Part shown: piece after piece, positions 1 to 62,276 of the stretch | Position numbering within the stretch: position 1 is the stretch's first letter | Layout: every line of letters begins with the position of its first letter | Virus record (IMG/VR): IMGVR_UViG_3300032317_000090 | Span: 1-62,276 of that record | DNA length: 62,276 bases | Reading direction: 5' to 3' (one strand) | DNA from: a virus | Lineage: Duplodnaviria; Caudoviricetes | The notes under the pieces: model-generated | The model's input: only the letters and a program-made list of their open reading frames with translations | Told to the model about the DNA's origin: nothing | Database searches by the model: none | Translations under genes and position numbers: made by a program

Positions 1-123
1 CTTGCGCAGGAATTCAAGTTGTGCCGAAGTGGGCTCCTCACGCTGCCAGTCGTAACGGTCAACGTGCTTTGCGACGGCCCAACCGAGAATTGGAGCAAGA
101 TCCGCGAGTGATTTGAGCCGGTA
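1..123. repeat. Terminal direct repeat (identical to 62154-62276); circular-assembly overlap
   Basis: First 123 nt match the last 123 nt; the helicase frame runs uninterrupted across the junction. Confidence 0.95.
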
Positions 124-1347
124 AAGCTTGCCGGTCTGCTTAGCCATGGCCGCCGCGAGAGACTGCTCCCGCTTTTCTTGTTCCTCACGGTTGACCTTTA
201 GGCGGCGCTCATGCTCATCCGCCGCCTCACGCTTAGCCTCGGAAAGCGTCATTCCCTCGGCAAGCTTCTCTTCAATAATCTCAATCTCGTCCGCATCCTC
301 GCCGATGAGGTTTGCCGGGCGCATGATGTCGTGATTTTCATGAAGGAAGAGCGGATCGAGCAAGAGGCAGTTCTCTTTACCGGGGTAAAGCCGGGTGCCG
401 CGCCCAATAGCTTGCGTGTAAAGCGTAGTCGATTTGATTGGCCGGAGCGGAAAGATGCAATCCGTGCATGGAAGGTCTACCCCCTCGGTTAGAAGCTGCG
501 AGTTCGCCAGGACATCAAGCTCACCGTCCTCAAACCGTTTGATCTTCTCCGCCTGATCCTTGCACTTCCCGGAGACGTAATCCGCCCGGAGACCCACCTT
601 GCGGCATTCCTCGGCAAAGTCCCGCGCCGTGACGATCAAGGGCAGGAACGCCAGCGTGCGACGGTTCCCGGCCTTTTCCTTGAGCATCTCGGCGGCTTTC
701 GCGAGGTGAGGCCGGATCGTGGAATCAAGCTCGTTTTCGTCGAAGTCGCCATCGCGGCCAACGTGGACGGAGTTGATGTCGATGTTGAGCGGCGCGGACT
801 CCACAACGATTGGAGACAGAAAGCCCATGTTCACAAGCTCCAACATCCCGATCTCATAGGCCACCGTGGCGAAGGTCTTTTCCAGTCCGAGCCGGTCCCC
901 GCGATTCGGTGTTGCCGTCACGCCGATTACCTTGGCGTTCGGAAAATGATTAATTGGCCTCAACCATGGCCCCTTGGCGTAATGGTGGCACTCGTCCACA
1001 AGAATCAGCTTGAAGTGATCCGGAGCGAATCGGCTAAGCCTCTTAGCCATGCTACCCACGGAGCCGACAACAACGTCATTGAGCATGGTGGCCCGCTCCT
1101 TGCCCATTTCCACGCCAGGGTGAAACCCATCGGCGGCGAGAGTCTGGGCAATCTGCTCGATCAAGCGCCGACGGTGCGCGATGACGAGAACCTTGTTGCC
1201 CTTCGCCGCCGCCGCTTCCGCCATCCGCGCCATGATGATCGACTTTCCGCCGCCCGTGGCGACAACGATCATGGTTGACTTGTTGGAGCGAAGCTGAACC
1301 CGAGCCGCCTCAATGGCTTCAAGCTGGTATGGACGGAGCGGGCGCAT
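1..1347 (-). CDS. SF2 DEAD/DEAH-box helicase, 5' part (continues across junction to 61935; ~521 aa total)
   Basis: Manual translation MRPLRPYQLEAIEAA...MIVVATGGGKS (Q motif, Walker A), DECHH; TAATG overlap with upstream gene; absent from ORF track because it crosses the end. Confidence 0.9.
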   Translation of the reverse strand, partial: MRPLRPYQLEAIEAARVQLRSNKSTMIVVATGGGKSIIMARMAEAAAAKGNKVLVIAHRRRLIEQIAQTLAADGFHPGVEMGKERATMLNDVVVGSVGSMAKRLSRFAPDHFKLILVDECHHYAKGPWLRPINHFPNAKVIGVTATPNRGDRLGLEKTFATVAYEIGMLELVNMGFLSPIVVESAPLNIDINSVHVGRDGDFDENELDSTIRPHLAKAAEMLKEKAGNRRTLAFLPLIVTARDFAEECRKVGLRADYVSGKCKDQAEKIKRFEDGELDVLANSQLLTEGVDLPCTDCIFPLRPIKSTTLYTQAIGRGTRLYPGKENCLLLDPLFLHENHDIMRPANLIGEDADEIEIIEEKLAEGMTLSEAKREAADEHERRLKVNREEQEKREQSLAAAMAKQTGKLYRLKSLADLAPILGWAVAKHVDRYDWQREEPTSAQLEFLRK

Positions 1348-1625
1348 TAGTTGAGCGTGATTTCTTCGGCCTTGTGGACTTCTTCGGTTTCGATCTCGCG
1401 GGTGATCTTGATTCCCCTGGCCGCCGCCCGGCCCGAAGGCGTGCGCAGCCGAACAATCCACCCCCGGGCTTCGAGCTTGTTGAGGTGACCTTGGACGCCG
1501 CTTTGGTTCGCGACGCCAATAGCCTTGGCGATTTCTGGTTGGGACGGCGAGAAGCCGTGTTCTTTCGTGAATGTCCGGATGAACTCCATGACTTCACGCT
1601 GGCGTGGCGTAATGCTCTGACTCAT
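1347..1625 (-). CDS. LexA-like winged-helix DNA-binding protein (N-domain only)
   Basis: ITPRQREVMEFI...GFSPSQPEIAKAIG...VQGHLNKLEARGWI resembles LexA DBD; no peptidase domain. Confidence 0.8.
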   Translation of the reverse strand: MSQSITPRQREVMEFIRTFTKEHGFSPSQPEIAKAIGVANQSGVQGHLNKLEARGWIVRLRTPSGRAAARGIKITREIETEEVHKAEEITLN

Positions 1626-1659
1626 GGGATACTATTAACACCTAATAATGAAAAAGCAA
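1626..1659 (-). promoter_or_regulatory. GGTGT-type promoter, probably leaderless
   Basis: TTGCTT-16 nt ending GGTGT-TAATAGT-ATCCC-ATG; nearly identical to element before 37919. Confidence 0.6.
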
Positions 1660-5096: not shown

Positions 5097-6397
5097 GTAC
5101 TCCTGCAAACATCGCAACCGTTATTGCCGACTCCCTCAAAGGAGCCGCCTCCACCACGCCAGCGCCCGCCGCTGCCGCGCCCGCCGCTGAAGTCAAGCCC
5201 GCCGCCGCGACCAAGGCGGCGTCGAGCATGGCGGAACTTGCCCGAAACAACATGGCCAAGCTTCCCACGCCTGGGGAAGCTCCGGCGACACCGGCACCCG
5301 CCGCCCCGGAAGATGGTGAGTTCACGATCGAGGAAAGCCAGTTCCCCGATCACCCGGCGTTCAAGGGTCTCGTGAAGCCGGACGGCTCCGCTGGCAAGGG
5401 GGCGCAATTCAAGTATCTCAAGGATCGAAACAAAGCGTGGGAAGCGTACGCTGCCGATCAAGCCGGTGAAGCGGCAAGGCGCGGCGGCGCATTGACCGAG
5501 CGTGAAAAGAGGCTGGCCGAAATCGACGCTGAGCTTGCCTCTGCTAAGGAGCGGCTTGCCGCAGTTCCGGAAATCGAAGGCCGAGCCAAGACGGCTGAAG
5601 AGCGCCTCGCCCTGCTCGATCTTCAGCATGATCCGGACTTCATCCGGAAATTTGGGGAGCCGGTCACAAAGCTTGAGGCTTCCGTTAGCGACACTCTCGA
5701 CCTTGCCGGAAGCTCGAAAGGTCTCGTGATTTCAAAGCTCAACGAGGCGATTCGCGCGAAAGACAACGCGACGTTTGTTGCGGCGGCGCTCGATGCCATG
5801 AACGGCTTGATTCCGGAATCCGCTCACCCGATGGTGATTCGCGACCTCCGCGACCTCCGCGCCCTTTATGCTGAGCGCGACGCCGCCCTGGCTAGGCATC
5901 CTTCGATGAAGGACGTCATCGCCACGGAGAGAGCCTCGCGTCGCCGGAGCGAGGCTGAGAGCTACATGACGAAGGACTTTGCGGAGATGACGCGCACCAT
6001 GGGCAACACGGCCCACGGCCTTCATGAGATGCTCAAGCAGGAAGGCGTTATCGAATTGCTGAAGCCCCACCAAGATGCGCTCGACAAGATGCGCAAGCAG
6101 TTCCCGGAAATCGTCCGCTCCACGGTGGAGAAGGTCGGTCATATCGGGCCGGAACTCATGGGTTACGCCATTCTCGGCCAGGAACTCTTGCCGTCTGTCT
6201 TCCTGATGTCCGAGATGTTCCGCGAGCACCAAGAGATGCAGGCGGAACTCAAGGACTTGAAGGCCGCCGCCGCGCTGGCGGAGAGCCGCTCAAGAGGGCG
6301 TCAAGGTGACCCTCGGCCCGGCAGTGGAGGCGGCACTCCCGGCGTCGCCCGCACCATGGGCGAACTTGCCACTCAGCGCCTCAACGAGAACTCGTAA
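5093..6397 (+). CDS. Putative scaffolding protein
   Basis: Ala/Pro-rich N-terminus and long coiled coil; lies between portal and capsid. Confidence 0.55.
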   Translation: MSTPANIATVIADSLKGAASTTPAPAAAAPAAEVKPAAATKAASSMAELARNNMAKLPTPGEAPATPAPAAPEDGEFTIEESQFPDHPAFKGLVKPDGSAGKGAQFKYLKDRNKAWEAYAADQAGEAARRGGALTEREKRLAEIDAELASAKERLAAVPEIEGRAKTAEERLALLDLQHDPDFIRKFGEPVTKLEASVSDTLDLAGSSKGLVISKLNEAIRAKDNATFVAAALDAMNGLIPESAHPMVIRDLRDLRALYAERDAALARHPSMKDVIATERASRRRSEAESYMTKDFAEMTRTMGNTAHGLHEMLKQEGVIELLKPHQDALDKMRKQFPEIVRSTVEKVGHIGPELMGYAILGQELLPSVFLMSEMFREHQEMQAELKDLKAAAALAESRSRGRQGDPRPGSGGGTPGVARTMGELATQRLNENS

Positions 6398-6670
6398 TTG
6401 CTCGACGGCCCCGCTTCCTTTTTCGGTAAGCTTGACTAAGACGCTCCGGCGGTCCATTCCAAGCTCCCGATAATGGCGGGTGACAAGGCTGTATTTCAAA
6501 GCTTCCTTGATGTAAGAGGTGGCGCACGACGGCGAAATCCCGAGGCTGTCCGCAAGATCGCCCATGTGGATTCCATTCGGATGAAGGGCTATATTCTGGA
6601 TGGCGTCGGCGGCCCGGTAGGTGATTCCGATCTCTTCAATCCCTTGGCGAAGGGCGGTAAGGTATTTCAT
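6290..6670 (-). CDS. MarR-family winged-helix regulator
   Basis: MGDLADSLGISPS...LVTR...DRRSVLVKLTEKG MarR signature; own promoter TTGCCC-16-TACTTT-6nt-ATG. Confidence 0.8.
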   Translation of the reverse strand: MKYLTALRQGIEEIGITYRAADAIQNIALHPNGIHMGDLADSLGISPSCATSYIKEALKYSLVTRHYRELGMDRRSVLVKLTEKGSGAVEQLRVLVEALSGKFAHGAGDAGSAASTAGPRVTLTPS

Positions 6671-6751: not shown

Positions 6752-7729
6752 TTAGGACGCAAGATCGAGTTCCATTTGTTTGCTGGCAACCGGAAACGGA
6801 ATGATGTTTGCGACGCCGCCCGGCCTCATGCGCGGCGTAATCGTTGGCAGGCCGTAGCGCCCGATACTCAACCGCTTACGAGCCCTCCTCGTTTTCGGAA
6901 GCGGCGGCGGCGTTGGCGGCGTTGGAGGAAGAGGAAGGGCGCGGATGCCTTCGGTGGTGACCTCGTAGACCGGAACCTCGCTTACCATCATGCCGCCGCA
7001 AATCACAAGGAGAAGCTCGAACATGGCGGCAAAGCCAAGGATTGCCCACTTACCCCACTCCTCAGCGGCGATCCAGTATGTCTCCCCTTCGGCCGTCGCG
7101 GCCTTAACCTGGGCCTCTTCGAGCTTGGTTTCGAGATGCTTCACACTTTCCGTCGCGCTGGCGATTTCGATGGACAAGACCTCGACCTCTGACCGGAGCC
7201 GCCGCCATGCGGGGAATTTCCCGGCAGTTGCGAGAACCTCGCGGATTTGATCCTCCGGTGGTGCCTCCTTAGCCATGTCCGCCACGGCCGCCCTGAAGCC
7301 GGTCTGAAGCTTACTCAACTCATCACGCTCATGGGCCAGCCGCTCCGCCGTGGTAGTCACCGACGCTTTCGCGATAGATGCCGGGCTGATATGCTCCAGC
7401 GTCATTCGGTTCCAAAGTGACGCCGAATCGGCGCTGATTGCCAGGGCAAGGCCGCCAATCGCCATCACGCCGCCAAGCACTGCTCGGAAGAATGATGATG
7501 GCCCGGTGACCTTTGCCGTAGCAACGATCATTGCGCCGATGGTGGCAAGGAGCGTGATTGCACCGGCACCGGCCCAGCTTAGATGATCCGGCATTCCGAA
7601 AGCCTGCTTGATGCCCCCTTGAAGGGCGGGAATGAGGAAGATAGACCCCGACAGCCACGCAAAGGCCGCCAGCCAATTTACTTTGAATTTGTTCTTCATA
7701 GGTATTGGTTCAACGGTAACACCATGCAA
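6752..7729 (-). CDS. Multi-pass membrane protein with coiled coil
   Basis: Three N-terminal TM segments, coiled coil, one further TM, Pro/Arg-rich tail. Confidence 0.7.
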   Translation of the reverse strand: MHGVTVEPIPMKNKFKVNWLAAFAWLSGSIFLIPALQGGIKQAFGMPDHLSWAGAGAITLLATIGAMIVATAKVTGPSSFFRAVLGGVMAIGGLALAISADSASLWNRMTLEHISPASIAKASVTTTAERLAHERDELSKLQTGFRAAVADMAKEAPPEDQIREVLATAGKFPAWRRLRSEVEVLSIEIASATESVKHLETKLEEAQVKAATAEGETYWIAAEEWGKWAILGFAAMFELLLVICGGMMVSEVPVYEVTTEGIRALPLPPTPPTPPPLPKTRRARKRLSIGRYGLPTITPRMRPGGVANIIPFPVASKQMELDLAS

Positions 7730-7909
7730 AGCGTGAATTCAAGCGTTCTTTTAAAAAATTCTTTGCAAGCGGGGAATTATCTGGTAATTAGGAATCGAGC
7801 TTGCCGGAAGTTGCTTACCGGAGAATGGGCCTGAATCGAGTTTGCCCGCGATTCCAAATCTGAGCGCAATCACGCTCTAGCCTTTCTCTTCACCTAAGCA
7901 ATACACAAC

Positions 7910-9391: not shown

Positions 9392-9440
9392 TTCACGCTC
9401 AACCAAAACTGACTGAAAGAGAACTTGAAAGAGAACTAAC

Positions 9441-9881
9441 ATGAGTCTCGAACTTAATCCATTGCGCTCTTCGGGCGATGCGTTCACCACGCCAGCCAAT
9501 TCGATTGGCTACAACCGGCTTTCCGAAGATCGGAAAAGCTACATCAAGGGGAAGTTTCCCCACCTGATTACCGGGGTTTTCGGTGCCTTCAAGCGCAACG
9601 GGGTCGCAGTGACCACAGTTTCGCTTGAGGTTTACACCGACGGCCAAGCCACTCCTGCGGTCGCCACCGTCAACAGCATTCCGATTCTCCAAGTCGTTAA
9701 TGCGAGTGACATCATTGTCGATCTGTCGGGGGTTTCCAACATCACCCAGAAAACCTTTAACCTGATCTACCCGACGGTGAGTGTTCCGACCTTTGCCGGT
9801 CACAGCATCGCCGCCGCCGGGGATCTTCCGGACGATCGTCCAACGATTGTTGATCCGGTCACTGGCATCAACGCTTCATAA
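9441..9881 (+). CDS. Putative virion/capsid decoration protein
   Basis: Beta-rich ORF directly after MCP. Confidence 0.5.
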   Translation: MSLELNPLRSSGDAFTTPANSIGYNRLSEDRKSYIKGKFPHLITGVFGAFKRNGVAVTTVSLEVYTDGQATPAVATVNSIPILQVVNASDIIVDLSGVSNITQKTFNLIYPTVSVPTFAGHSIAAAGDLPDDRPTIVDPVTGINAS

Positions 9882-19479: not shown

Positions 19480-19501
19480 TTCGGGAATTACAATCACGCT
19501 C

Positions 19502-33331: not shown

Positions 33332-35207
33332 AGTCGGCGGCGATGATGATTTCCCCATAGGGATCATCTCCGCCCTTCTTGCCTAGGATTCGCGAGCGAG
33401 TCTCCGGTGTGTTGTGCCGCCCGGTAGCTACGAGGCCCCGGGTGCGAGCAACCTCGCAGAGATAGGCCAGTGAGTCCCCATGGTCGGGAGATTTTCCGGA
33501 GCCGGGGACGCCGCCGCGCCCATTCTTCATCTCCTTCTTGGTCTCGATGCTGACCATGTTCGCGGTCTTGTGATAATACTTTCGGGTAAAGAAGTCCCTA
33601 GCGTACGCTTCTCCGCTACTCCACCCGCGAATCGTGCCGGTAATTACCAGGGTGCGAACGCGCATCCAGAGTTCCGTCACTTTCCGGTCGTAGACGTCGC
33701 AGCAAGGCCGCAAGTCTTCCGCGCTCACCACGTCCCGGGAAGGCTTCTCCATGGAGGAGATCGCCAGGAAGGCCGCCGTTCCCCACTCGATAGCGATTGC
33801 CCGAAACAGGGTGCCGCCGTCGGCGGAAATGTCCATGCCGAAACAGGCTGGAAGGACGCCATTCGCCCTACAAATCTCGACAACCTGTTTCGCGATCGAG
33901 GTTTTGTAATCAACCCCGGCCTCAGCGTAAAGCTCAATGCTCCCGGCGATCTGAAGGATGCGCTTCCCGGTCCTCATCTCCCACCCGAGAATGCCGAGCG
34001 TGAGGACGGCGGAGTCTCCAGTGCCAGTGAAGGCCGGATCGAGAGAAGCGATAGCCTCGCGCATCCGTGGACCCCAGATGGCATCCTCGCGAGCGTAGAG
34101 CGGCACGTCGCTATCCGTAAGGACAGTCAAGTCAGAGTCTCCACCTTCGACGTACTCGCCAACACACATGGCCCCGAATGCCGCAGACTTCGCGCCCTTC
34201 TCCCACCCCTGGCCGCCGGAGAGCGCGATAGCTTCCCGGCGCATACCAATATGGTTGGACAGGTAGGGAAAGGGTAGCTCAGACTTCTCTTTGGCTCTGA
34301 GCAACTCCGGGTGCATGTTCGGAGAGCGCCATCCGGACAGGAACACGCAGATTCCCCCGCGCTTTGTGCGCCACCTACCACCGTAGACCTGATTGTAGCT
34401 GTTGTGGCCGCTCCAGCCGTGGACGGGAGCGCAGGCGTCCCGGTGGGGATTGCGGCCGGGCTTGGCGTTGCCTAGGCCCAGAAGCTTGAATTGCTCATTT
34501 GAGCTTCTCAGGTTGGCAATCGGGTAACTCAGAATATCGAGCGCCAAGTGGGGCAACTCATCGACTATCCAGACTACGAGTTTATTTTTGATTCCAATCA
34601 AAGCTTCCGCCGCATTCATTCCGTCGTTTCCACGGGGTAGAAGGACGATGGCGATTCCGTTTTTGATGGCCGTCGAACTTCGGTCCTTCTTGCCGGTCAA
34701 TTCGTAAGTCTCATCGAGCGTGAGGACGTGATCGTAATCAATGATCCGGCCCACGGAGAACTTCGCGGACGTATGAAGCGATTTCACGGCGTCCCAGGTT
34801 CGTTTCTCCGCCCCGCTCCCGCTCGTGGACGAGATCATGATCGAGGTTTTCGATGGGTTGGAGTAGAACAGCATGAGGGCCAGAGCCGCCGCGCCGTAAG
34901 TCTTGGCGCTCGATGCCGGGCCGGTCACGATAACCTCATCCTCCACCGGATCGAGGAACGGCTCCCAAACGGCCTGGACGTATTCGTTGCGATACCACTT
35001 CCCATTGAGCGGAGCCTTGCGTTCAAAGGCGAATTGCTCCGGAGCCCAGATGCCACGGGCTGCCCGCTCAGCGTGAATGTGGGAGTCCTGAAGAAGCGGA
35101 TACTTTCTCCGGCCAGCAAGAGTCATGGCCGCCCGCATTGCCTTCAATTCGAGGGCAGCGGGCGGCAATTCGGCCAGGGCGGCGGGCAATCCGTAGGTGT
35201 CGCTCAA
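33324..35207 (-). CDS. terL: Terminase large subunit
   Basis: Walker A GPASSAKT, Walker B IVDE, nuclease LDPAFTG...D and SPDHGDSLAY. Confidence 0.85.
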   Translation of the reverse strand: MSDTYGLPAALAELPPAALELKAMRAAMTLAGRRKYPLLQDSHIHAERAARGIWAPEQFAFERKAPLNGKWYRNEYVQAVWEPFLDPVEDEVIVTGPASSAKTYGAAALALMLFYSNPSKTSIMISSTSGSGAEKRTWDAVKSLHTSAKFSVGRIIDYDHVLTLDETYELTGKKDRSSTAIKNGIAIVLLPRGNDGMNAAEALIGIKNKLVVWIVDELPHLALDILSYPIANLRSSNEQFKLLGLGNAKPGRNPHRDACAPVHGWSGHNSYNQVYGGRWRTKRGGICVFLSGWRSPNMHPELLRAKEKSELPFPYLSNHIGMRREAIALSGGQGWEKGAKSAAFGAMCVGEYVEGGDSDLTVLTDSDVPLYAREDAIWGPRMREAIASLDPAFTGTGDSAVLTLGILGWEMRTGKRILQIAGSIELYAEAGVDYKTSIAKQVVEICRANGVLPACFGMDISADGGTLFRAIAIEWGTAAFLAISSMEKPSRDVVSAEDLRPCCDVYDRKVTELWMRVRTLVITGTIRGWSSGEAYARDFFTRKYYHKTANMVSIETKKEMKNGRGGVPGSGKSPDHGDSLAYLCEVARTRGLVATGRHNTPETRSRILGKKGGDDPYGEIIIAADFT

Positions 35208-35482
35208 AACGGGATGTCGTCTTCTTCAGGATTCGGTGCCGGTTGCGCCGGGGGCGTCGGGCCGTCATCCTCAAGATCGTTCTGCGGCGGGCGGGCCTGC
35301 TTTGGCTTAACGGAAAGCGAGAGGAATTTCCCGGAGCCGTCTTTTTTCTCCTTGATCCAACCCTTTATCCAAAAGTCAACCCCCTCAACATTGAGGTTTC
35401 CCTCGTAGTCCGGGTGAGTGTCCTGTTTTTTCTCCTTCTGACGAAAGAGAACTCCGCGATTTGTGTTGTCGTATTCTGCCAT
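35204..35482 (-). CDS. SSB-like protein
   Basis: MAEYDNTNRG...HPDYEG...W...FLSLSVKPK and acidic EEDDIPF tail. Confidence 0.75.
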   Translation of the reverse strand: MAEYDNTNRGVLFRQKEKKQDTHPDYEGNLNVEGVDFWIKGWIKEKKDGSGKFLSLSVKPKQARPPQNDLEDDGPTPPAQPAPNPEEDDIPF

Positions 35483-35486
35483 AACC

Positions 35487-36494
35487 TTATAAGCTAAGTT
35501 TTCCAGCCTTAAAAGCCTCGTCAATGTCCAGGCCATCCGGCAGTTGAAGGCGTCGCACCTTGCAGCGTACGCGCTCAAGCTGGCTGGCGATCCGGGTTGC
35601 CGCCGAGCAACCGGCGTGATCGTAATCGAATCCGAGCGTCACGTCCTTCCCTGAAAGCATAGTTAATTCCCAATCGGGAATCAAGTAACTCGCATTCGGA
35701 ATGGCTATAACCCGCCCGAGATTCAGCCCGCCCGCCGCGTCAAGCTCCATCATCCGTAAGGCGTCGGTTTCGCCCTCCGTCATGAAGATGTTGTGCTCCT
35801 TCACTGGTTCGAGCTTGCCGCCACGAGCCGGGCCGTTCCACAGGGTTGCCTTGGTCAGTCCGTAGTTCCAGAGCCATTTGATTCGCCGCTCTCCTGACGT
35901 GCGCCATCGGCATTTAACGCCCCACCCATAGACGAAGCAGAGCGCCCGAGACTTCGGCCAGTCGATTCCATCACTCCCGGAGGATGGCCGGTCGAACTTC
36001 GGGAACTCCACGACCCCCAGGATTCCATCAAGACAGGCCGCCTGAAGCGTACTGAGTTGATAATCACGCTGAGTTGCCATAATTGGTAGCAATTCGGACT
36101 TCCACCCGTCGGCGCAAACCTGAGTCATCAACCGCAGTTGATACTCATCGAGATCCGGCGGGCGTGGCCGCGATGGTTTTGGCGTGTCCCGTGGCTTGTA
36201 GGCGAGGTGTTCCGGCTTGAGATCCTTGTGCTTCCCGGCCAGAAGCGCAAAAGAATCCTTGTAGGTTCGCCCAGTAGCCATTGCATAAAACATCACCGCA
36301 TCTCCGGCCCACCCGGTTTCACCCCGGCGAGCGTAGTCGCAATAGCCCATGCCGCACTTCCAGACCACAAGGGAAGGGTGAATATCCTCACGCCACGGAA
36401 CATTGGTTCGCCGCCCGGCGCGGAAATCTCCGTTCAACTTTAGCGCGGAGGCGACCTCTTCAATCGTGAGCATATCGACGAGCCCGACTTCCAT
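35487..36494 (-). CDS. DNA primase (degenerate Zn-finger plus Toprim)
   Basis: PWREDIHPS...GDAV; TEGETDAL; FDYDHAG; DIDE. Confidence 0.85.
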   Translation of the reverse strand: MEVGLVDMLTIEEVASALKLNGDFRAGRRTNVPWREDIHPSLVVWKCGMGYCDYARRGETGWAGDAVMFYAMATGRTYKDSFALLAGKHKDLKPEHLAYKPRDTPKPSRPRPPDLDEYQLRLMTQVCADGWKSELLPIMATQRDYQLSTLQAACLDGILGVVEFPKFDRPSSGSDGIDWPKSRALCFVYGWGVKCRWRTSGERRIKWLWNYGLTKATLWNGPARGGKLEPVKEHNIFMTEGETDALRMMELDAAGGLNLGRVIAIPNASYLIPDWELTMLSGKDVTLGFDYDHAGCSAATRIASQLERVRCKVRRLQLPDGLDIDEAFKAGKLSL

Positions 36495-37372
36495 CAGATT
36501 ACGTCCTCTTCGGCTGGTGCTGGTGCTGGCCGCTCATCGACCCAATCAGGCTTGCTCAGTGTGGCATCCCAGCGAAGGTGGAACTTGGCCGCGACCTGCT
36601 TAATGGCCGTCCATCCCTGGATTTGATGCGGCTTACTCAGCTTGGCATCGGTCCGATACTTGACGAAGGATTCAACAATGCCCCGGAAGTCGTCAATCGT
36701 GCGAGCTTCCGAAAGGTCTTGAAACATCGGCGGCGGCATGATGAACGGCGGCTCTTCCTCAGCTGGTGCCGTGGCGGCGGGAGCCGGGGCCGGTTCCTCC
36801 TTCTTGGCTGGCGCTGCCGCTGGCTTGGCTGGTGCTGGTTTGTTGGCGGGAGGCAACTTTGGTTCCTTCCGTTGTTGTTCGGCAACAGGTTCCTCGTCAA
36901 CGTGCAAATCCCCCTTGTGCCACAAGTCCAAGGCGCAACCGAAGCGCATGGCGGCATTGCGCAAGGCGTCCCCAATCCGCTCCTTCATGGCGTCTCCGCC
37001 TGTTTTTCCGGCGGCATCGCCCACGCCCTCAACCGTCTTATCGCAGACGGTCAACTTGATCCAAAGCAGGCCATCCTTTGGGTCGATCATAGGGAGTCCG
37101 TTGGCGTCCCTTGCTGACGGCTCCCAGTTCCAAAAGGGATCGACCTCAAGAAGCCGGTCGGTCAATGCCGCATGACCGACATAATCAAGATGCACCGCAC
37201 TCCGGTGGTGCCAACCCTTGCAAATCGGGCAGTTGATTCCCAATTTGGGATCAGCCTTGCGAGCGTCGGCTTGCTGCTTTGACTCCTTTGGAAGCTTGGA
37301 AATCTGGTTGGGAGGGAATGGGGCGCGAAGCGCTTTGAATCCAGCCTGTTGCTCAGCGGTTAGTTTTTGCAT
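36494..37372 (-). CDS. Rad52/Sak-like single-strand annealing protein
   Basis: LDYVGHAALTDRLLEVDP...KERIGDALRNAAMRFGCALDLW; start likely MQKLT. Confidence 0.85.
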   Translation of the reverse strand: MQKLTAEQQAGFKALRAPFPPNQISKLPKESKQQADARKADPKLGINCPICKGWHHRSAVHLDYVGHAALTDRLLEVDPFWNWEPSARDANGLPMIDPKDGLLWIKLTVCDKTVEGVGDAAGKTGGDAMKERIGDALRNAAMRFGCALDLWHKGDLHVDEEPVAEQQRKEPKLPPANKPAPAKPAAAPAKKEEPAPAPAATAPAEEEPPFIMPPPMFQDLSEARTIDDFRGIVESFVKYRTDAKLSKPHQIQGWTAIKQVAAKFHLRWDATLSKPDWVDERPAPAPAEEDVI

Positions 37373-37409
37373 AGAAGCGTGAAAGCGTGATTGATTAAAT
37401 GCGTGAAAG

Positions 37410-37919
37410 TCAGGAGAAGCGAACGTGAGTTCCGCGAGGCTCCTCTGCGACGCCGGGGATGGCAATCCCAATCTTCAGCCAGTGGCGGATTTCGTCGGTG
37501 TCCGGCGTCCGCACAATCTTGAAGAACGCGCCCGGCAACTCCTTTTCGTCGATCTTGAGCGGCACAACGCCGCCGTTATTCTGAATCGCCACGGAAACGA
37601 GCTTTCCGACGTGCTTTGACCGTCCCATGGTTCCCAGGAGTCCACGGCAAAGGTGCTTCATTCGCGTCTCAGTGTTGTCGCACGTTTCGGCCAGCCTTGC
37701 CAGCCGGTCACGCTCCGCCTTAATGCCCTCACCTCGACGTTTGGCTTGGATGCCAATCCGGGCGAGGCTCTCAAGCATTGACTCGATACTCCCGATCTTG
37801 TCCCGATAGACGCAAAGCGCCTCATCCTTGTCCTCATCGGTGATTTCCTCATCCATGAGGATCGCTTCAAGCTCGGTAAGATCTGGCCCTAACATCAGCA
37901 AATCAGCTACTTTTCCCAT
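37410..37919 (-). CDS. Siphovirus Gp157-family protein
   Basis: IKAERDRLARL...IQNNGG...ELPGAFF...PDTDEIR...IPGVAEEPRGTHVR. Confidence 0.85.
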   Translation of the reverse strand: MGKVADLLMLGPDLTELEAILMDEEITDEDKDEALCVYRDKIGSIESMLESLARIGIQAKRRGEGIKAERDRLARLAETCDNTETRMKHLCRGLLGTMGRSKHVGKLVSVAIQNNGGVVPLKIDEKELPGAFFKIVRTPDTDEIRHWLKIGIAIPGVAEEPRGTHVRFS

Positions 37920-37981: not shown

Positions 37982-38824
37982 ATGCCTCATCTTTCGGCTA
38001 TGTCACCTATTACTGCTCCGGCCCCGCAAGCGAGGCCACCCCACCCGGCGGACATGGCCCGCACTGATGCTGAAGCTCGCGGAATGACCGGCCCAGCCGA
38101 GGCACCCGCCAACCTCAAGCCGTCGGACGATGAAATCCGAAGCATTATGGCACCACGCCACCCGAACGCTTCGATTTCCCTTCCCGCCAATCTCCCGCCA
38201 ACCTCCGCCAATCTCAACGCCGCGCCCGATGCCCGCGCCGCCGCCGCCGGGGACTCCCTTCCGGGCCGCCGGTTGAGCGAAGACGAGCAACGCTACATCG
38301 AGAGCAACCAACCGGCACCACTTCCGCCGGTCGGGAGTGTGGCCCAGCCGCCAGCCGTAGCGCCACAGCGCTCACTACAGACGGAGCCCGTCGATGCGCC
38401 CGCCGAAGGTTACATCCCTAGCATCTACCGAGTAGAAGAGGTCGCCCGCGCATTGTTTGTCAGCGGCGAGACTGCTTATTATTCGTTCGCCCGCGCTAAG
38501 CTTTTTGACGAAGCGTTCCAGGCATTCGCCGCCGACGCTTACGAGAAAATGAAGTCCAGCGTCGGGATTGCTCTGGATCAAAGCTGTGCCCAGGAAGCCG
38601 CGACTGTCGCAGAGGCTCCGGCACCGGCTCCGGCCGCCGAGACTCCGCGCCGAGGCCGCCGGACGAAAGCCGAAATCGCCGCCGCGAATGCCGCCGCCGC
38701 CGGGGTCGTCGAAACGGAAACCCCCGAGCCGCTGGCCGCCGAGCCCGCCGCCGAACTCCCCCTCGAAGAGGCTGAGGAGCCGGTGAATCTCGACGGGGAC
38801 GCCGCCGAAAATGACCTCATCTGA
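37982..38824 (+). CDS. Low-complexity Pro/Ala/Glu-rich protein
   Basis: Long ORF with phage-like codon usage; RRGRRTKAEI motif; start may be 38000. Confidence 0.6.
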   Translation: MPHLSAMSPITAPAPQARPPHPADMARTDAEARGMTGPAEAPANLKPSDDEIRSIMAPRHPNASISLPANLPPTSANLNAAPDARAAAAGDSLPGRRLSEDEQRYIESNQPAPLPPVGSVAQPPAVAPQRSLQTEPVDAPAEGYIPSIYRVEEVARALFVSGETAYYSFARAKLFDEAFQAFAADAYEKMKSSVGIALDQSCAQEAATVAEAPAPAPAAETPRRGRRTKAEIAAANAAAAGVVETETPEPLAAEPAAELPLEEAEEPVNLDGDAAENDLI

Positions 38825-39491
38825 ACGAGCGCAGGAAATCACGCTCGCCTCATCCATTGACGCCAGGGATGAGGCGGGCCTTTCCGTCATCCATTCGACC
38901 AACCGGCGCGAGAACGTGGTTGCGCAGCTTGGAACAAGGAGGGACGGCAAGCCACCCCTTTCGTGGGCCATCAAGGCGCTTGCCTGTCAGCTTTGGCTAG
39001 AGGGGCATACGCACCGGGCCATTGCCCTTGAAATAGGCCAGACGCCGGTTGCTGTCGAAAGCTGGGCGAACCGCTACAAGTGGGGCAAGTTGGCGAAGGC
39101 CGCCGGACTTACTCGGAACCGGCCCACGGTAGACATCCACGAAAGCGTGATTGCGATTCGCGACAAGATCGAGCGTGGCGACCTTGCCCTTGCTTCGATG
39201 TTCGTCCCGGACTTCGCGCAGGCCGCCGAGGACTTCAAGGACTGGCGCATGAACGCCGTTCAGGGTTTAACTCAACGCTTCGATGAGCTTCAGGCCCAGG
39301 ACACGCCGGAAACGCAGGTCAATGAGGAGACTGGCGAAGAGGAGCCTATGGACCCGCGAGCTCAACTCGAGTTCGACGCCAAGCTGGCCAAGTCAATTGC
39401 CGCCATCGGCAAGGATGCTTTCGGGGCGGTCGGCGCGACCGGCGGAGGCGGAAAACAGAATATCGCGATCTTCCTCGACATCGACGTTTGA
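38811..39491 (+). CDS. HTH protein, candidate terminase small subunit
   Basis: HRAIALEIGQTPVAVESWANRYKW HTH followed by helical region. Confidence 0.5.
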   Translation: MTSSERAQEITLASSIDARDEAGLSVIHSTNRRENVVAQLGTRRDGKPPLSWAIKALACQLWLEGHTHRAIALEIGQTPVAVESWANRYKWGKLAKAAGLTRNRPTVDIHESVIAIRDKIERGDLALASMFVPDFAQAAEDFKDWRMNAVQGLTQRFDELQAQDTPETQVNEETGEEEPMDPRAQLEFDAKLAKSIAAIGKDAFGAVGATGGGGKQNIAIFLDIDV

Positions 39492-40400: not shown

Positions 40401-40436
40401 AATAACCGTAATGCTAAGCGTGATTTCAAGCGTGAA

Positions 40437-41797: not shown

Positions 41798-41836
41798 GGT
41801 GTCGTGAATGCTAAGCGTGATTGTCGAAAGCGTGCT

Positions 41837-46389: not shown

Positions 46390-46393
46390 AGTG

Positions 46394-46829: not shown

Positions 46830-46992
46830 CAGTTTCTTGATAATCCACGCTTTTTAATACTTTTCCCCGATGGCGGCCACGCTTTCACGCTTCGACCTAT
46901 GCTCATTCAGCATCAAACCGGCCTTTCCTATACTTGAACGGTATTGAATTTTAATGGCAGGAAAGCGCGATTTTAGGGCTCAAAATTTTCCG

Positions 46993-47028
46993 CTTGAACG
47001 CTCAAGCTCCCGTCTTTGAGCGTTCAAG
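46993..47028. repeat. Perfect 13-bp inverted repeat
   Basis: CTTGAACGCTCAA-10 nt-TTGAGCGTTCAAG. Confidence 0.85.
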
Positions 47029-47933
47029 ATGATTTCCTTGATGGCTCAAATTGCCGGCAATGGCGCTTGATGGCTTTTAAGCCATGTTTCCCGGTGTTTT
47101 CATGGCTTGGCGGTAATGATGCCGGAAAGCGTGGAGTGAGCGTGAAAGCGTGATTTAACGGGGAAAGCGTGGCCGAATTCGGACACGGTGAAAGCTCCTC
47201 CAAGGAGCTTGAAAGCGTGGCAAAGTGGGAGCTTGGAAGGATGGGAACTGGATGGCGACGGTTGACCGAGCTGGTTTTTTGTTTGGATGATGGACGAATA
47301 GGGGGACAGGGATTTACGGGGTTGATAGGCTTAGCATCTTGGTAACCCGACCAATTTAGTAGGGAACTCGGTCACCTTGCATGGCCGAAATATGGGCCAG
47401 CATCTTGGTTAAAGCGATCAGACACGGCTCAAATCCCGCAGCGTGTCCCATGGTCAAGCTGGAAAGCTCCTAGCGCACCCTTGAGGGCTTTAAACCCTGT
47501 TAGAGTAGTGTTCAATTGAATCGCGGCTATTCATTATGGTTGTTGTCCGAAGTTATAACACGCATTCGGCGGATCGGATTCGGCCCGCCCTCCTATCTGC
47601 TTTCCCGGTTTGCCATGCCACCGATTACCGAGTGACCCTAAGCCACGCTTGCACAGGACTCTCGTTAGCGGGACTGTCTGAGGTGGGCTGAGGTGCATCG
47701 GTTAGGCCACCCCACCGGGGGCACCCCCACCCGCCCCCGGCCCCGGCTCCGCGCGGGGAGAGCCTCACGTCACAAAATACGCCCATTTCCATCCTAACAC
47801 TGCAACTATTTCCCGCCTGGAAACGGTTCCCTCTGGCCGCGTAATAGCGACGCCAGTTTTCCAGGCGCTCCAGTCCCGCCCCGGCCACCCGGCAGAAAAA
47901 AATCACCCGTGGAAATCGCGCTCACAGCAAACA

Positions 47934-48456: not shown

Positions 48457-48494
48457 GTGTTGATCTTTTCCGCAAAGGTGTTATCTTACCGGCC
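48456..48494 (+). promoter_or_regulatory. GGTGTT-repeat promoter, probably leaderless
   Basis: TTGATC-16-TATCTT-7nt-ATG; GGTGTT at 48456 and 48477. Confidence 0.7.
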
Positions 48495-51437: not shown

Positions 51438-51443
51438 CACCAC

Positions 51444-51479
51444 TTGACGCATCACGCTTAGGTGTTACTGTTGCTCGAT
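51444..51479 (+). promoter_or_regulatory. GGTGT promoter with TCACGCT in spacer, probably leaderless
   Basis: TTGACG-catcacgcttaggtgt-TACTGT-8nt-ATG. Confidence 0.7.
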
Positions 51480-53684: not shown

Positions 53685-53717
53685 CCTTCACGATAACACC
53701 TATTAAGAGAAAGTCAA

Positions 53718-57025: not shown

Positions 57026-57045
57026 TTAAAGCGGTGCGCCTAATA

Positions 57046-57084
57046 GGTGTTGACAGGATGCAAAAAGGTGTTACAGTGAGCGCT
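57046..57084 (+). promoter_or_regulatory. GGTGTT-repeat promoter, probably leaderless
   Basis: TTGACA-16-TACAGT-7nt-ATG; GGTGTT at 57046 and 57067. Confidence 0.75.
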
Positions 57085-57315
57085 ATGTCCAACGAAGCCA
57101 GCCTCGATTTCAGATTGCCAGATGACGCCGACATCTTCGCCAGCGTCCGCCGCACCCCGGCGGAGCCGCATCGCGTCCCGCATAAAACCTATCACTGCAT
57201 GGCCCAGTGCGGCCCCGATTACACCGAGCGCAAGCAACCGCTGAGCGCCGTGGAAATTCGCGACCCGAAAGTCCCACTGCCGCGCCAAAAAATCACCGGG
57301 CTCTACGAATATTGA
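57085..57315 (+). CDS. Hypothetical protein
   Basis: Promoter-adjacent ATG. Confidence 0.55.
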   Translation: MSNEASLDFRLPDDADIFASVRRTPAEPHRVPHKTYHCMAQCGPDYTERKQPLSAVEIRDPKVPLPRQKITGLYEY

Positions 57316-59520: not shown

Positions 59521-59844
59521 TTACCCCTCGATAGTCAAGGGCGGCTCCGTGGGCCTTTCCTCAGCGGCCTTTTCCATGGCCTCGTATGCCGCATTCTCGG
59601 AGGCCAAGTCTTTCATGACTTCGAGCGCGAATCGCTTCATTGCCCGATCACCGAGCCTAGCTCCTACCTTGCTGGAAAGGCGTTCGAGCGTGACGATTCG
59701 CAGGTAGGCGAATTCCGAGAGATGGTCCCCGGCGACGGCCCGCTGGCGGAGCGCCTCCATTTTCATGATCTCCAGTTGCCGCCGGTCGAGTTTGATCTCC
59801 GGTTGATCCGGCTGGCCCTGCTGTTCTTGTTGGTCGTTTTCCAT
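59521..59844 (-). CDS. Hypothetical protein
   Basis: Preceded by tandem TCACGCT. Confidence 0.6.
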   Translation of the reverse strand: MENDQQEQQGQPDQPEIKLDRRQLEIMKMEALRQRAVAGDHLSEFAYLRIVTLERLSSKVGARLGDRAMKRFALEVMKDLASENAAYEAMEKAAEERPTEPPLTIEG

Positions 59845-59877
59845 ATTGTATTGAGCGTGATTTACGTTGAGCGTGAT

Positions 59878-60291
59878 TCAGCGTGGCAGCGCGGCGCGGA
59901 CGGCGCAATCCTTGGCTTCGAGAAGTTTCCGAAGCGCGACTTGCGTTTCGACCGGACAGGCTCCCTTCTGGGTGACGAGCTTGTAAGCGAGAACCTTGAA
60001 CGGTGCGCTGATCTCCTGAAGGAACTCGGGGAGGTGGCCGAACTCGAAGAAGCGAAGGAACTCCGCATGGATTCGATTGTCTGGCCTCACGTCCAAGCAG
60101 ACGTTCGCCGCGAGGAACTGCTTGGCCGGACACCATGAGGTGTAACCGTCCGGGTAGACGACAACGAACCCTTCGGTTGCGTCTCGTTGAGCGGATCTGG
60201 CCTTTACGATCTTGAAGGCCCCAAAGGTGGCCATCGGGTCGAGAGGAAGCGGCGTTTCAGAAGGGAGCGGTTTGGTTTCGCTTGGATTCAT
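59878..60291 (-). CDS. Two-domain protein, C-terminal Acb2/Tad1-like helical hairpin (candidate sponge)
   Basis: GFVVVYPDGYTSWCP domain plus FFEFGHLP...ALRKLLEAKDCAVRA. Confidence 0.55.
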   Translation of the reverse strand: MNPSETKPLPSETPLPLDPMATFGAFKIVKARSAQRDATEGFVVVYPDGYTSWCPAKQFLAANVCLDVRPDNRIHAEFLRFFEFGHLPEFLQEISAPFKVLAYKLVTQKGACPVETQVALRKLLEAKDCAVRAALPR

Positions 60292-61096
60292 ACTGTGTTA
60301 GTCTTGTTTTCAACTCAGGCAAAAAGCGATCCGCCCAAGTGTCCCGGACGGCTTGAAGGGCTTCGAGGTGTTCGTCCGGGCGAAGCATGTTGATATACTC
60401 AGGCCGGTCCAGCCCGAGACGTCCGGCCCACTCGCCGGGCGTGCGGTATTTGTAGTGGTTGAGGCGGAGGAAATCAGCCGACGGGAAGCTGGTTTCCGGT
60501 GACGACATTCCCCTGATTGCGCCTGTCAGGGATTCAACGGTATCGACAACGTGCAGGCCGTCGATGAGGCGCTCGCCGGGATCGTGATTGCAGTAGCGGC
60601 GGCCATGCGCTTGCGGCTTCTCGATGGTCTTGAAGAACCGATTCCATCCCCAGTCATCCGCCGCCCGCCAGCGGCACCGCTCGATGATGAGACCTTCCTC
60701 TTCTCCGGCCCCGTAGTTACGCCAGTGAACAGCGGTTGCAATGGTCCCGAATGGCATGGTCTTAAGCGGGATCTTGACCGTCAGGGAAAACACCGGCTCA
60801 AGGAATTCGTCGTCGTCGATGTTGACGAACCAATCAGCCTCCGCATTGATGGCGATCTCGCGGCCAATGTTGAGACAGGTAATCATGAGCGGATCATCTC
60901 CCGGCTTCCAAGAAACCTCGGTCACCGAATCGAGAATCCCTTGGCGGAGCAACTCCGCATAGACGGCTTTGCTCTCCGGCTTGGAAGCGTGATCGAATAG
61001 ATGGATCTGGTCCCAGCCGGTCAGCTTGTGGAAAATCGCCCATTCGGCAACATGGTCCCCGGTGTCCCGTTGCAGTGTCATCATCACGGTCTTCAT
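60257..61096 (-). CDS. Glycosyltransferase (GT2_4/GT92-like)
   Basis: EWAIFH...G.DQIHLFDHAS, WFVNIDDDEFL, WRNYG, KTI, RLNHY. Confidence 0.82.
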   Translation of the reverse strand: MKTVMMTLQRDTGDHVAEWAIFHKLTGWDQIHLFDHASKPESKAVYAELLRQGILDSVTEVSWKPGDDPLMITCLNIGREIAINAEADWFVNIDDDEFLEPVFSLTVKIPLKTMPFGTIATAVHWRNYGAGEEEGLIIERCRWRAADDWGWNRFFKTIEKPQAHGRRYCNHDPGERLIDGLHVVDTVESLTGAIRGMSSPETSFPSADFLRLNHYKYRTPGEWAGRLGLDRPEYINMLRPDEHLEALQAVRDTWADRFLPELKTRLTQYESKRNQTAPF

Positions 61097-61938
61097 AGAT
61101 CGCGTGATGATACGACATAAACACCTGTTCGCAACCCTGACCTTTTGAGTTTTTCGGCAATCGTCGTCGCCTCTATGAGGAGGTGATCGGTGGGCCGTGA
61201 CTTGCTGGAAAGATTGTAGCGATCCGCCGCCTCGGACTGAGTAAGCTCGATCTGGATGGAGACGGAGATGCGGCGCTCCTTCCAGTCCGGCGGAATCCTT
61301 GCGCCGCGCACCCGGTTTCCCTCTTGGGAGAAAGCGTAGATGAGCGCCGGTCTCTTGCCGACTCCCTGGTTGAGCGCCGCCGCAAGTTCCGACTGGGCCG
61401 CCTCAGTGAGCGTGACGGCCACTCGGTACGCTTCGTGGAGCGTGAGTCTCTTCTGATCGTAAAGCGACTCGATCTCCGGCACCGCCTTTTTCCGGATGCC
61501 GCGCTCCCGCCTGATCTTGTGAATAGACTCGCCCCTTACTTCGGCTTCTTGCTCCAGGGTGAGTCTTTTCGCGAATTGCGCCGCGACCAATTCACGCTCG
61601 TCTTTAGTGAGTTGCCGCCGGGCGATGTTCTCCGCCAGAATCCAGGCGATGATGGCGGATTCCTTGCAAGTGTAGATTACGGAATCCCACTTCAGGCCCA
61701 TCCCTTTCATGAGGTAGATCCGGTGCCTACCATCGACTAAGAAAATCTCCTCACCTACACTCTCGCGCCAGTAAGCAACCGGGTTTTGCTGCCCGAGTTC
61801 CTTAATGGATTGAGCGAGAAGCCGAATCGAATCCTTGCTCGCCACGGGAAGCAGCCTGCAACACTCGTGAGCGTTCGCCGCCGCCTCCACGGCCTGCTCG
61901 TAGGGGAATGGCTCCGGTTTGCCTAAGTCGTATTTCAT
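61093..61938 (-). CDS. ParB/Srx N-terminal domain protein
   Basis: LAQSIKELGQQNPV, LVDGRHR, ENIARRQLT. Confidence 0.8.
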   Translation of the reverse strand: MKYDLGKPEPFPYEQAVEAAANAHECCRLLPVASKDSIRLLAQSIKELGQQNPVAYWRESVGEEIFLVDGRHRIYLMKGMGLKWDSVIYTCKESAIIAWILAENIARRQLTKDERELVAAQFAKRLTLEQEAEVRGESIHKIRRERGIRKKAVPEIESLYDQKRLTLHEAYRVAVTLTEAAQSELAAALNQGVGKRPALIYAFSQEGNRVRGARIPPDWKERRISVSIQIELTQSEAADRYNLSSKSRPTDHLLIEATTIAEKLKRSGLRTGVYVVSSRDL

Positions 61939-62276
61939 ATTGCTTGCTCGACTTCCTGCTTATTGCCCTTGAGTCCGTCGATGATGCTCCTGGCCGCGTC
62001 AAAGGACACGCTCCCGGCTCTCGGGACGCCCTTCGACTCCATGAATTGAACTTGCTTCAGGGTGGCGAGGCGCTTCTCTGAGCGATCATTGATGGCCTTG
62101 ATGATCGACGCCGCCGCGCCCTTGCTGGTTGCAAGCTGGATCGGGTAGCCGTGCTTGCGCAGGAATTCAAGTTGTGCCGAAGTGGGCTCCTCACGCTGCC
62201 AGTCGTAACGGTCAACGTGCTTTGCGACGGCCCAACCGAGAATTGGAGCAAGATCCGCGAGTGATTTGAGCCGGTA
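61935..62276 (-). CDS. SF2 helicase, 3' part (joined to 1-1347)
   Basis: In-frame continuation ...EPTSAQLEFLRKHGY...LATLKQVQFMESKG...EQAI*; stop overlaps ATG of next gene (ATGA). Confidence 0.85.
   Translation of the reverse strand, partial: YRLKSLADLAPILGWAVAKHVDRYDWQREEPTSAQLEFLRKHGYPIQLATSKGAAASIIKAINDRSEKRLATLKQVQFMESKGVPRAGSVSFDAARSIIDGLKGNKQEVEQAI
62154..62276. repeat. Terminal direct repeat (copy of 1-123)
   Basis: Direct sequence identity with window start. Confidence 0.95.

Follow-up and report, generated by a model that had tools for sequence, protein, structure and literature searches.

The viral record IMGVR_UViG_3300032317_000090 of IMG/VR holds the genome of a tailed phage (Caudoviricetes) that is listed as complete and with direct terminal repeats. 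The whole of this record, 62,276 bp, is the window analyzed here. Its two ends have 123 bp in common, and the unique genome is thus 62,153 bp. The G+C content is 58.0%, compared with the ~60% assumed in the original prediction, which was made from the sequence alone, and no tRNA genes are present. Distributed throughout this genome is a short, asymmetric word, TCACGCT (complement AGCGTGA), which occurs 73 times over both strands of the window (39 copies on the + strand and 34 on the − strand). The copy at position 38 sits in the terminal overlap and is counted again at 62191, which leaves 72 unique copies (38 + and 34 −). The abundance of this word, its arrangement around genes and the protein that may read it are the subject of the present analysis.

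The original prediction had counted 60–70 copies by eye against about 8 expected, and exact counting bears out this estimate, with 73 (72 unique) copies against about 7–9. In 100 dinucleotide-preserving shuffles of the window, the word was found 7.21 ± 2.59 times, with a largest count of 14, and none of the 100 reached 73. Markov models of orders 0–5 give expectations of 8.1, 7.6, 9.3, 14.8, 30.2 and 53.7 copies against the 72 observed. In this check, which the original prediction had proposed, an excess is found at every order, and it persists even at order 5, the most conservative. The reversed word TCGCACT, which is identical in dinucleotide content, occurs only three times, and TCACGCT ranks first among the over-represented heptamers of the window (order-2 Markov, z = 20.8). 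The unique copies lie on average 863 bp apart, with a near-random, Poisson-like spacing (coefficient of variation, CV, 0.88; random range 0.79–1.22) and a largest gap of 3268 bp.

The conserved sequence extends beyond the heptamer. Among the 73 copies, the second position upstream is A in 46 and the first position upstream is A in 39 and T in 20, while directly downstream C (37 copies) or T (28 copies) predominates and A does not occur. The extended word is thus A-[A/T]-TCACGCT-[C/T], and its commonest forms are AATCACGCT (32 copies), AATCACGCTC (18 copies) and AAATCACGCTC (11 copies). The heptamer itself is sharply defined. The 21 one-mismatch variants, when pooled, occur 251 times against 178 expected, a 1.4-fold excess, compared with 7.7-fold for the exact heptamer. 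The most enriched of these variants is CCACGCT (29 copies versus 10.4 expected), which is also the form used in the arrays near 47 kb described below.

The distribution of the copies between and within genes shows that this excess does not follow from the encoded proteins. Open reading frames (ORFs) were called roughly in-house, using a self-trained codon score with gap filling, and were curated later. Synonymous-codon shuffles were then made that preserve every protein and the codon usage of each gene (400 shuffles for the set of 70 ORFs). Within these 70 ORFs there are 56 copies of the word where the shuffles give 11.8, and in a set of 75 ORFs there are 60, against 12.6 ± 3.4 in synonymous shuffles and 6.4 ± 2.4 on codon permutation. 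The loss of enrichment under such shuffles had been named as the outcome that would overturn the original prediction, and the enrichment stays. In the 70-ORF set, 33 in-gene copies are in sense (7.6 ± 2.6 expected) and 23 in antisense (4.2 ± 1.9 expected), and each of the six classes of strand and frame is enriched 3.3- to 7-fold. Since the ratio of sense to antisense copies matches that predicted from codon structure (7.6 : 4.2), the enrichment itself is indifferent to orientation. The second outcome named against the prediction, intergenic copies no denser than background, was likewise not observed. Sixteen of the 72 copies touch non-coding DNA, which amounts to 5.8 kb, and their density of 2.75 per kb is ~2.7 times the 0.99 per kb found in genes (binomial P about 1e-4 to 8e-4). 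Together, these results support selection acting on the DNA, rather than a by-product of composition or coding, as the source of the TCACGCT excess. The core of the original prediction, a selected signal at the level of DNA, thus stands for both orientations and all three frames, at 3- to 7-fold over amino-acid-preserving shuffles.

The copies are also arranged non-randomly with respect to gene starts. Twelve copies, before nine genes, have a start on the same strand within the next 50 nt, where random placement gives 2.2 ± 1.4 (maximum 8 in 2000 sets). Only three copies are found upstream of starts in antisense (12 versus 3, two-sided P 0.035). The distances from word to start are 0, 3, 3, 6, 9, 11, 16, 16, 25, 28, 33 and 41 nt, and the nine genes include those for an annealing protein and a methyltransferase-like protein, the two that open the long + strand block, and the helicase, at its probable start. 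The tandem copies that the original prediction placed 5′ of starts (37376/37384, 40417/40429 and 59854/59870) and the single copies that it placed there (41814, 7730, 7870, 9393, 19494 and 51452) all hold the word, with some positions shifted by one base.

The tandem pair at 37376..37390 (−), with a spacing of 8 bp, lies 3 and 11 nt before the ATG of the single-strand annealing gene (36494–37372, −; E 1.3e-49), between this gene and that of a Mu Gam-like end protector (37410–37919, −; E 5.4e-14). Both belong to a recombination and replication module (35204..37919, −), which holds in one block these two genes together with a Toprim primase (35487–36494, −; E 5.9e-9) and SSB (35204–35578, −; E 7.9e-15). 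A second pair, with a spacing of 12 bp (40417..40435, −), lies 16 and 28 nt before the ATG of a 129-aa gene (40011–40400). Full copies are joined by weaker ones at 41814..41835 (−), where a full copy at 41814 and GCACGCT at 41829 stand upstream of the methyltransferase-like gene (41159–41797), at a distance of 16 nt, and at 59854..59886 (−), where full copies at 59854 and 59870 are followed by CCACGCT at 59880, at 9 to 25 nt before a 107-aa gene (59521–59844). The single copy at 7730..7736 (−) abuts the first possible start (TTG) of the ORF at 6752–7729. On the + strand, the copy at 7870..7876 lies 33 nt before the gene at 7910–9391 (493 aa), the first of the long + strand block, and that at 9393..9399 lies 41 nt before the gene at 9441–9881. 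At the 3′ end of a LexA-like gene, the copy at 1354..1360 (−) precedes by 6 nt an ATG that overlaps the stop codon of that gene and is probably the start of the helicase. Lastly, the copy at 19494..19500 (+) is situated 1 nt before an in-frame ATG of the ORF at 19340–20248, and this ATG may be the true start.

Weaker copies gather around full ones more generally. Of the 48 copies of [A/C/G]CACGCT, 14 have a full copy within 40 nt, where random placement gives 4.2 ± 2.0 and none of 2000 sets reaches 14. The pairs of full and weaker copies thus formed are on the same strand in 15 cases and on opposite strands in 2, and the pattern is present inside genes too. With all one-mismatch variants included, 22 are found within 20 nt of a full copy, compared with 11.2 ± 3.3.

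The sense copies 0–41 nt before nine genes, among them replication genes and the two that open the + strand block, could suggest a promoter element for a phage-specific transcription apparatus serving middle or late genes, with the internal and antisense copies acting as extra promoters. In keeping with this, a hexamer resembling TAnnnT follows the word after 0–1 base in five places (TAGCAT twice, TAGCCT twice, and at 51452), and early genes appear to be served by a separate set of promoters. These apparent early promoters are sigma-70-like (TTGACA, 16–17 nt, TAnnnT) and end 5–11 nt before the ATG, and their transcripts would thus be leaderless. Shine-Dalgarno usage is not seen in the genome, as GGAG, GAGG or AGGA precedes 8 of 74 predicted starts, at the background rate (12.5%), a hint that translation in the host may not depend on Shine-Dalgarno pairing. 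Both hexamers (−35 and −10) of the sigma-70-like promoters are covered by a second enriched word, AGGTGTT, which in the form AACACCTA occurs 9 times against 0.3 expected, in direct repeats ~21 bp apart. Sites of this kind are found at 47933–47965, 48455–48495, 57045–57085 and 51440–51480, and on the − strand at 53690–53717, 44265–44293, 1625–1660 and 46800–46830. The AGGTGTT repeats look like the operator of an early-gene repressor. TCACGCT lies outside these promoters, with the sole exception of the copy at 51452..51458 (+), which falls in the spacer of a sigma-70-like promoter (TTGACG ... TACTGT) before the gene at 51462–52031. A promoter function for TCACGCT is nevertheless improbable, given that 23 in-gene copies are antisense where 4.2 are expected, and that the distance to the start codon or to the −10-like element is not constant. 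Additionally, no RNA polymerase or sigma factor was recognized in the protein scans, among the families listed (25 of 31 and 25 of 36 in two of these scans) and with most proteins of the structural block scanned against Pfam only.

The full and weaker copies directly upstream of the methyltransferase-like gene raise another explanation, which had been among the options of the original prediction. The word may be the target of the encoded protein, with methylation acting as a timing or self signal, or with biased repair raising the frequency of the word. The protein matches PHROG families labelled “DNA methyltransferase” (E 1.7e-13 to 7.6e-12), but its Pfam match is to a general SAM-methyltransferase family, below the cut-off. 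Biased repair is expected to leave as its footprint a depletion of deamination neighbours. Such depletion is absent here, with TCATGCT found 12 times against 6.9 expected, TCACGTT 8 against 7.8 and TTACGCT 14 against 4.0. We also know of no mechanism that enriches a methylation target 8-fold in a phage, and this explanation is held to be quite improbable.

The largest non-coding stretch, near 47 kb, is located where the G+C content of the genome is lowest and carries the most elaborate grouping of the word. The left array (46845..46891, +) has CCACGCT at 46845, followed by an 8-bp tandem of CCACGCT (46877) and TCACGCT (46885). The right array (47128..47220, −) lies in mirror orientation to it, with the weak form AGCGTGG at 47128, 47166 and 47214 and the full form AGCGTGA at 47139 and 47147, again as an 8-bp tandem. 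Three + strand copies therefore face five − strand copies, which confirms the opposed clusters around a hairpin that the original prediction had described. This hairpin (46993..47028), located between the opposed arrays, is palindromic, and its 13-bp stem is perfect, with a loop of 10 nt. Its predicted folding energy is −13.9 kcal/mol (z −4.5), a stability that none of 200 shuffles attained, and a sequence that differs from the word at two positions, GAACGCTC, is present in both arms. Three decamers resembling CTTGATGGCT are found at 47037–47108, at intervals of 29–32 bp, on the side of the hairpin that faces the right array. Beside the non-coding region are the genes of an AAA_5 ATPase (45220–46488, −), CobS-like and with the PHROG label “porphyrin biosynthesis”, and, adjoining the latter, of a DUF7192 protein (44394–45215, −).

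Origin iterons are direct repeats grouped at one non-coding locus beside an unwinding element or a hairpin, and the three and five copies around a hairpin in the lowest-G+C part of the genome may be of this kind. Short asymmetric repeats are also found at centromeres and packaging sites, as with the parS boxes and pac hexamers of P1, and such repeats are normally confined to one locus. The two opposed groups around a central element at 46845–47220 are comparable to these. The same word, however, occurs here ~60 more times across the genome. Sites linked to replication in a more dispersed manner have also been considered, namely recognition sites of the phage primase, for priming of the lagging strand about once per kb on either strand, or sites of a nicking enzyme. 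The spacing of the word is near the size of Okazaki fragments, both strands are served, and the phage encodes the Toprim primase as well as HNH and other endonucleases. Known primases, however, read 3–5 nt, the nick sites of phages known to us lie on one strand only, and arrays before start codons would be left unexplained. The chance that the word marks replication in this way is judged to be very slight.

Considering these features together, we tentatively read A-[A/T]-TCACGCT-[C/T] as the asymmetric recognition site of a sequence-specific, most likely phage-encoded, DNA-binding protein, a reading to which we give somewhat less than an even chance. It is favored by the same-strand arrays of full and weaker copies and by the sense copies before starts. 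Arrays, grouping of strong and weak sites on one strand, mirror-image groups and sense copies at starts would all be expected from a DNA-binding protein, and the presence in the phage of several small proteins predicted to bind DNA, with no assigned target, counts in the same direction. The excess, the selection on the DNA, the extended word, the arrays and the placement before genes are all observed, whereas the existence of a protein reader, its origin in the phage and the outcome of its binding are our inferences. Such a protein would bind its asymmetric site as a monomer or as head-to-tail oligomers. The opposed arrays and hairpin near 47 kb may then constitute a master region, whether an origin, a centromere-like site or a packaging or control site. 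Elsewhere, the protein would bind sense-oriented sites 0–41 nt before nine or more genes, and because starts in this phage are leaderless or free of Shine-Dalgarno sequences, a protein bound there would overlap the start of transcription or translation. The ~56 further sites within genes, on either strand and kept by selection, would allow the protein to cover or police the whole genome, either through global silencing of the roadblock type, as with the stoperators of mycobacteriophages, or as loading sites for a spreading protein akin to ParB or KorB.

Several candidates for the reader protein are encoded in the window, all proposed from sequence matches. Of the proteins named as possible binders in the original prediction, that at 1347..1625 (−) is a 92-aa winged-helix protein, with matches to the LexA DNA-binding domain (5e-15) and to MarR_2 (4e-6). 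The other two are weak matches only. The 126-aa ORF at 6290..6670 (−) matches MarR_2 at E 5.9e-5, below the Pfam cut-off, and the protein at 61093..61938 (−) is weakly ParB/Spo0J-like in its N-terminal domain only (TIGR00180, E 1.8e-6, with 27.8 bits against a cut-off of 58.45; Spo0J structure 1vz0, E 0.044), with no Pfam match at E 1e-3. The polyvalent protein that was also named corresponds to a 2490-aa product carrying an LPD23 polyvalent-protein domain. A further candidate, a 226-aa helix-turn-helix protein at 38811..39491 (+), has a Terminase_5 domain (1.7e-6) and the PHROG label “DNA binding protein”.

A number of observations weigh against a binding site of this kind. Genes contain 56 of the 72 copies, which occur in both orientations and with the near-random spacing noted above, whereas the known sites of phage regulators, such as stoperators and promoters, are found mostly between genes and are tied to the direction in which these are transcribed (PMC9283540). 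The sharpness of the word, with its one-mismatch neighbours together only 1.4-fold up, exceeds that of most transcription-factor sites and looks like the recognition word of an enzyme. Spacings within arrays (8 to 40 nt) have no helical phase, and the tandems of full copies taken alone are not significant (four gaps of ≤20 nt, versus 1.6 by chance). The reader remains a set of candidates proposed from sequence, and among ten small proteins encoded just downstream of arrays no Pfam family was found at E 0.05. Finally, because the gene calls are rough, the counts at gene borders can shift by a few.

The stoperators provide the closest precedent for a binding protein with sites throughout a phage genome. 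According to McGinnis et al. (2022; PMC9283540), the repressors of cluster A mycobacteriophages bind more than 20 asymmetric 13-mers genome-wide, and do so as monomers, at sites that lie at promoters and between genes and are direction-locked. This system of L5 gp71-type repressors controls phage gene expression globally. TCACGCT resembles its targets in being asymmetric, in its many copies genome-wide and in the position of some of these at promoters and of others elsewhere, while the protein here is a candidate. The differences are nonetheless considerable. Stoperators are 13-mers with just over twenty copies, at promoters or in short intergenic gaps, whereas the present word has 7–10 bp and 72 copies, 56 of which are in genes on either strand. 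Direction-locking is likewise not found, as in-gene copies are divided into 33 sense and 23 antisense and those before starts into 12 and 3. The sites of ParB (parS) and KorB differ further, being palindromic, ~13–16 bp long and few, compared with 72 asymmetric copies.

The main rival explanation, and one that had also been listed in the original prediction, is that TCACGCT is a Chi-like word. A host helicase-nuclease of the RecBCD or AddAB type would read the heptamer on single-stranded DNA, stop degrading and start recombination. Since ends may lie anywhere in a circularly permuted genome, both orientations of such a word would be accumulated. P1 DNA, which is packaged by the headful, offers a direct comparison. 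Its first 50 kb hold 27 copies of Chi against 2.5 expected, 15 on the + strand and 12 on the − strand, interleaved, and the one-mismatch neighbours of Chi are at background (48 versus 46.7), much as the neighbours here are only 1.4-fold up. The density of TCACGCT in each orientation, ~1 per 1.7 kb, and its enrichment in all frames and on both strands are as expected of Chi, and a break between the opposed arrays near 47 kb would be guarded by them on either side. The complement AGCGTGA also bears what we take to be a resemblance to Chi words of the AddAB type. Zheng et al. (2025) found that P1, LLS, MD8 and 71 other lambdoid phages carry Chi about once per 1.9 kb, as their most frequent octamer, and that these phages are without a recombination module of their own. 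TCACGCT is similarly an exact short word that is the most over-represented of its length (~10-fold), at ~1 per 1.7–1.9 kb per orientation, mostly in genes, and in both orientations as in P1. A Chi of this sequence is plausible, because Chi sequences are known for only five species (Buton and Bobay 2020, preprint).

Other observations make the Chi-like reading doubtful; it ranks second, ahead of the promoter, methylation, host-word and replication readings. The phage encodes its own single-strand annealing protein, SSB and Mu Gam-like end protector, whereas the phages that accumulate Chi are without such a module, and in the lambdoid survey the phages with both a recombination module and a RecBCD inhibitor are mostly without Chi (Zheng et al. 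2025). Weaker copies of TCACGCT cluster on the same strand beside full copies, and full tandems precede starts, and Chi in P1 does neither. Variants of P1 Chi number none within 20 nt and two within 40 nt of a full copy, against 1.0 and 2.0 in random sets, and no two Chi sites of P1 lie within 40 nt of each other. Moreover, the 301 sampled genomes of Pseudomonadota that were searched with the heptamer fall far below the phage, with a maximum of 332 heptamers per Mb versus 1158, and a maximum ratio of heptamer to reversed word of 7.8 versus 24. Of the options listed in the original prediction, the binding site is somewhat favored, though not decisively, the Chi-like word fits the statistics but is weakened by the annealing and Gam-like proteins and by the arrays, and the evidence speaks neither for nor decisively against a methyltransferase target. 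A further and more novel reading, which we regard as unlikely, is that the word is a phage-private signal of self-identity, which would be recognized by a machine encoded by the phage and moving along DNA (for instance a nuclease-helicase, terminase or ParB-like clamp). If so, phage DNA would be spared, coated or packaged and host DNA would not, the arrays would be the loading site of the machine, and the word would be a viral counterpart of Chi or of uptake sequences. Some probability is also retained for an explanation beyond those listed in this analysis.

The TCACGCT feature is thus robust and unusual, and no described system accounts for it. The nearest kinds are stoperators and the Chi of phages that accumulate it, and TCACGCT fails a defining feature of each. 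The statement in the original prediction that this is not a described motif holds in full text, where the 7-mers gave two irrelevant matches and the 8- and 9-mers none. Few short words are maintained by selection at such density, and those with a known function (Chi, uptake sequences and stoperators) have revealed how self DNA is recognized or how a genome is controlled as a whole. In the present case, the word is exact and asymmetric, recurs every ~860 bp and in all reading frames of an uncultured phage, and is also used in arrays before genes and at a probable control or origin region. Identifying its reader would yield either a new phage regulator that acts globally through an unusually short site, or the Chi word of an unstudied bacterial lineage, or a system by which the phage marks its own DNA. 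In practice, the word could serve both to fish for the protein that binds it and to recognize relatives and hosts in metagenomes.

The word was sought among bacteria, with 565 genomes sampled in all, as it may belong to the host and be shared by its phage, either as an uptake sequence of the kind found in Neisseria and Haemophilus or as a hyper-abundant motif such as HIP1 of cyanobacteria. Uptake sequences occur at ~1 per kb, in both orientations and all frames, as an extended word of 9–10 bp. TCACGCT is thus like the DNA uptake sequences of Neisseriaceae and the uptake signal sequences of Pasteurellaceae in density, in indifference to orientation, in its use of all frames and in its composition of core and flank. 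It differs in that no carrier was found among the sampled genomes and that no sign of a shared host-wide drive is seen. Inverted pairs able to act as terminators are also lacking, as none occur within 30 nt, and the words of the nearest pair, 24226(−)/24261(+), are separated by 28 nt. AATCACGCT reached at most ~23 copies per Mb, versus 515 in the phage, in a set of 405 genomes that included an even sample of 401 Pseudomonadota, and the Pseudomonadota genomes richest in the heptamer are without the AA flank. Among 151 Planctomycetota and five further genomes from other phyla, none had more than 12 copies of AAATCACGCTC, and these were dispersed over contigs, compared with 11 copies in the 62 kb of the phage, and ATCACGCT occurs in five planctomycetes at only ~1.6 times the naive expectation. 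A host-wide word is held to be highly improbable, although the sample is small and a narrow host lineage could escape it. In bacterial genomes the word seemed to favor one strand, but this was set aside, as forward-strand matches are simply listed first, and no inference is drawn from it.

One exact 12-mer at 21200–21211 (−), 3 nt from a copy of TCACGCT, has the sequence of a DNA uptake sequence of the Neisseria type, and one-mismatch copies of it are found at 30288, 36035 and 53092. With up to one mismatch, these four sites compare with 0.33 in dinucleotide shuffles. They are taken as chance, given that synonymous shuffles set 3 against 0.67 (maximum 3 in 60 shuffles) and that, with up to two mismatches, there are 5 sites against 6.4.

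Relatives of the phage are distant. Among 50,697 records of cultured phages, there were no matches for 15 kb of window DNA or for three large proteins (tblastn), and most large proteins of the window have no match to a Pfam or PHROG family. For the 493-aa protein, used singly and in a profile of five sequences, and for the ParB-like product of 61093–61938, searches of IMG/VR returned nothing, and the profile likewise returned nothing from representative genomes. Four closer protein homologues have 44–64% identity, and the best protein relatives with sequence context have 28–38%. Conservation of the word in related phages, which the original prediction had proposed to look for, does not extend to the latter, as eight metagenome contigs at 28–38% identity hold one copy in 36.9 kb. 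Relatives of the helicase are ~30% identical, and these lack the word. That none of the 565 sampled bacteria is rich in the word, and that the distant relatives hardly carry it, fits a signal private to the phage, as would be the site of a phage-encoded binding protein.

Tandem forms of the word were also used as queries. The 17-mer tandem AATCACGCTTTCACGCT is found at 39 loci in representative genomes, which is no more than the number estimated for chance, and at one locus in IMG/VR, with none of these enriched for the word. Pairs of the form AATCACGCT-N(1-14)-AATCACGCT gave 38 loci in IMG/VR (L055–L092), none at the density of the phage. One of these, L091, was considered as a carrier (8 copies versus 1.3 expected) and rejected, as its flanks differ and no protein is common to it and the window. 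More than half of the 38 loci, all at 49–53% G+C, represent a conserved 21-mer, AATCACGCTGTAAATCACGCT, with constant flanking sequence, which belongs to one family of viral contigs and is unrelated to the window. A habit of word accumulation across the class was considered from the heptamer GTGGCCA in two contigs with helicase relatives, L005 and L006, and rejected, as this is a local 1.7-kb array and not a genome-wide feature. In these contigs (66% G+C; helicase identity to the window ~30%), dozens of copies of GTGGCCA(C), which contains a palindrome, are packed within 1–1.7 kb, at 7.0–8.75 kb in L005 and at 10.5–11.6 kb in L006, and may form a centromere-like or origin array.

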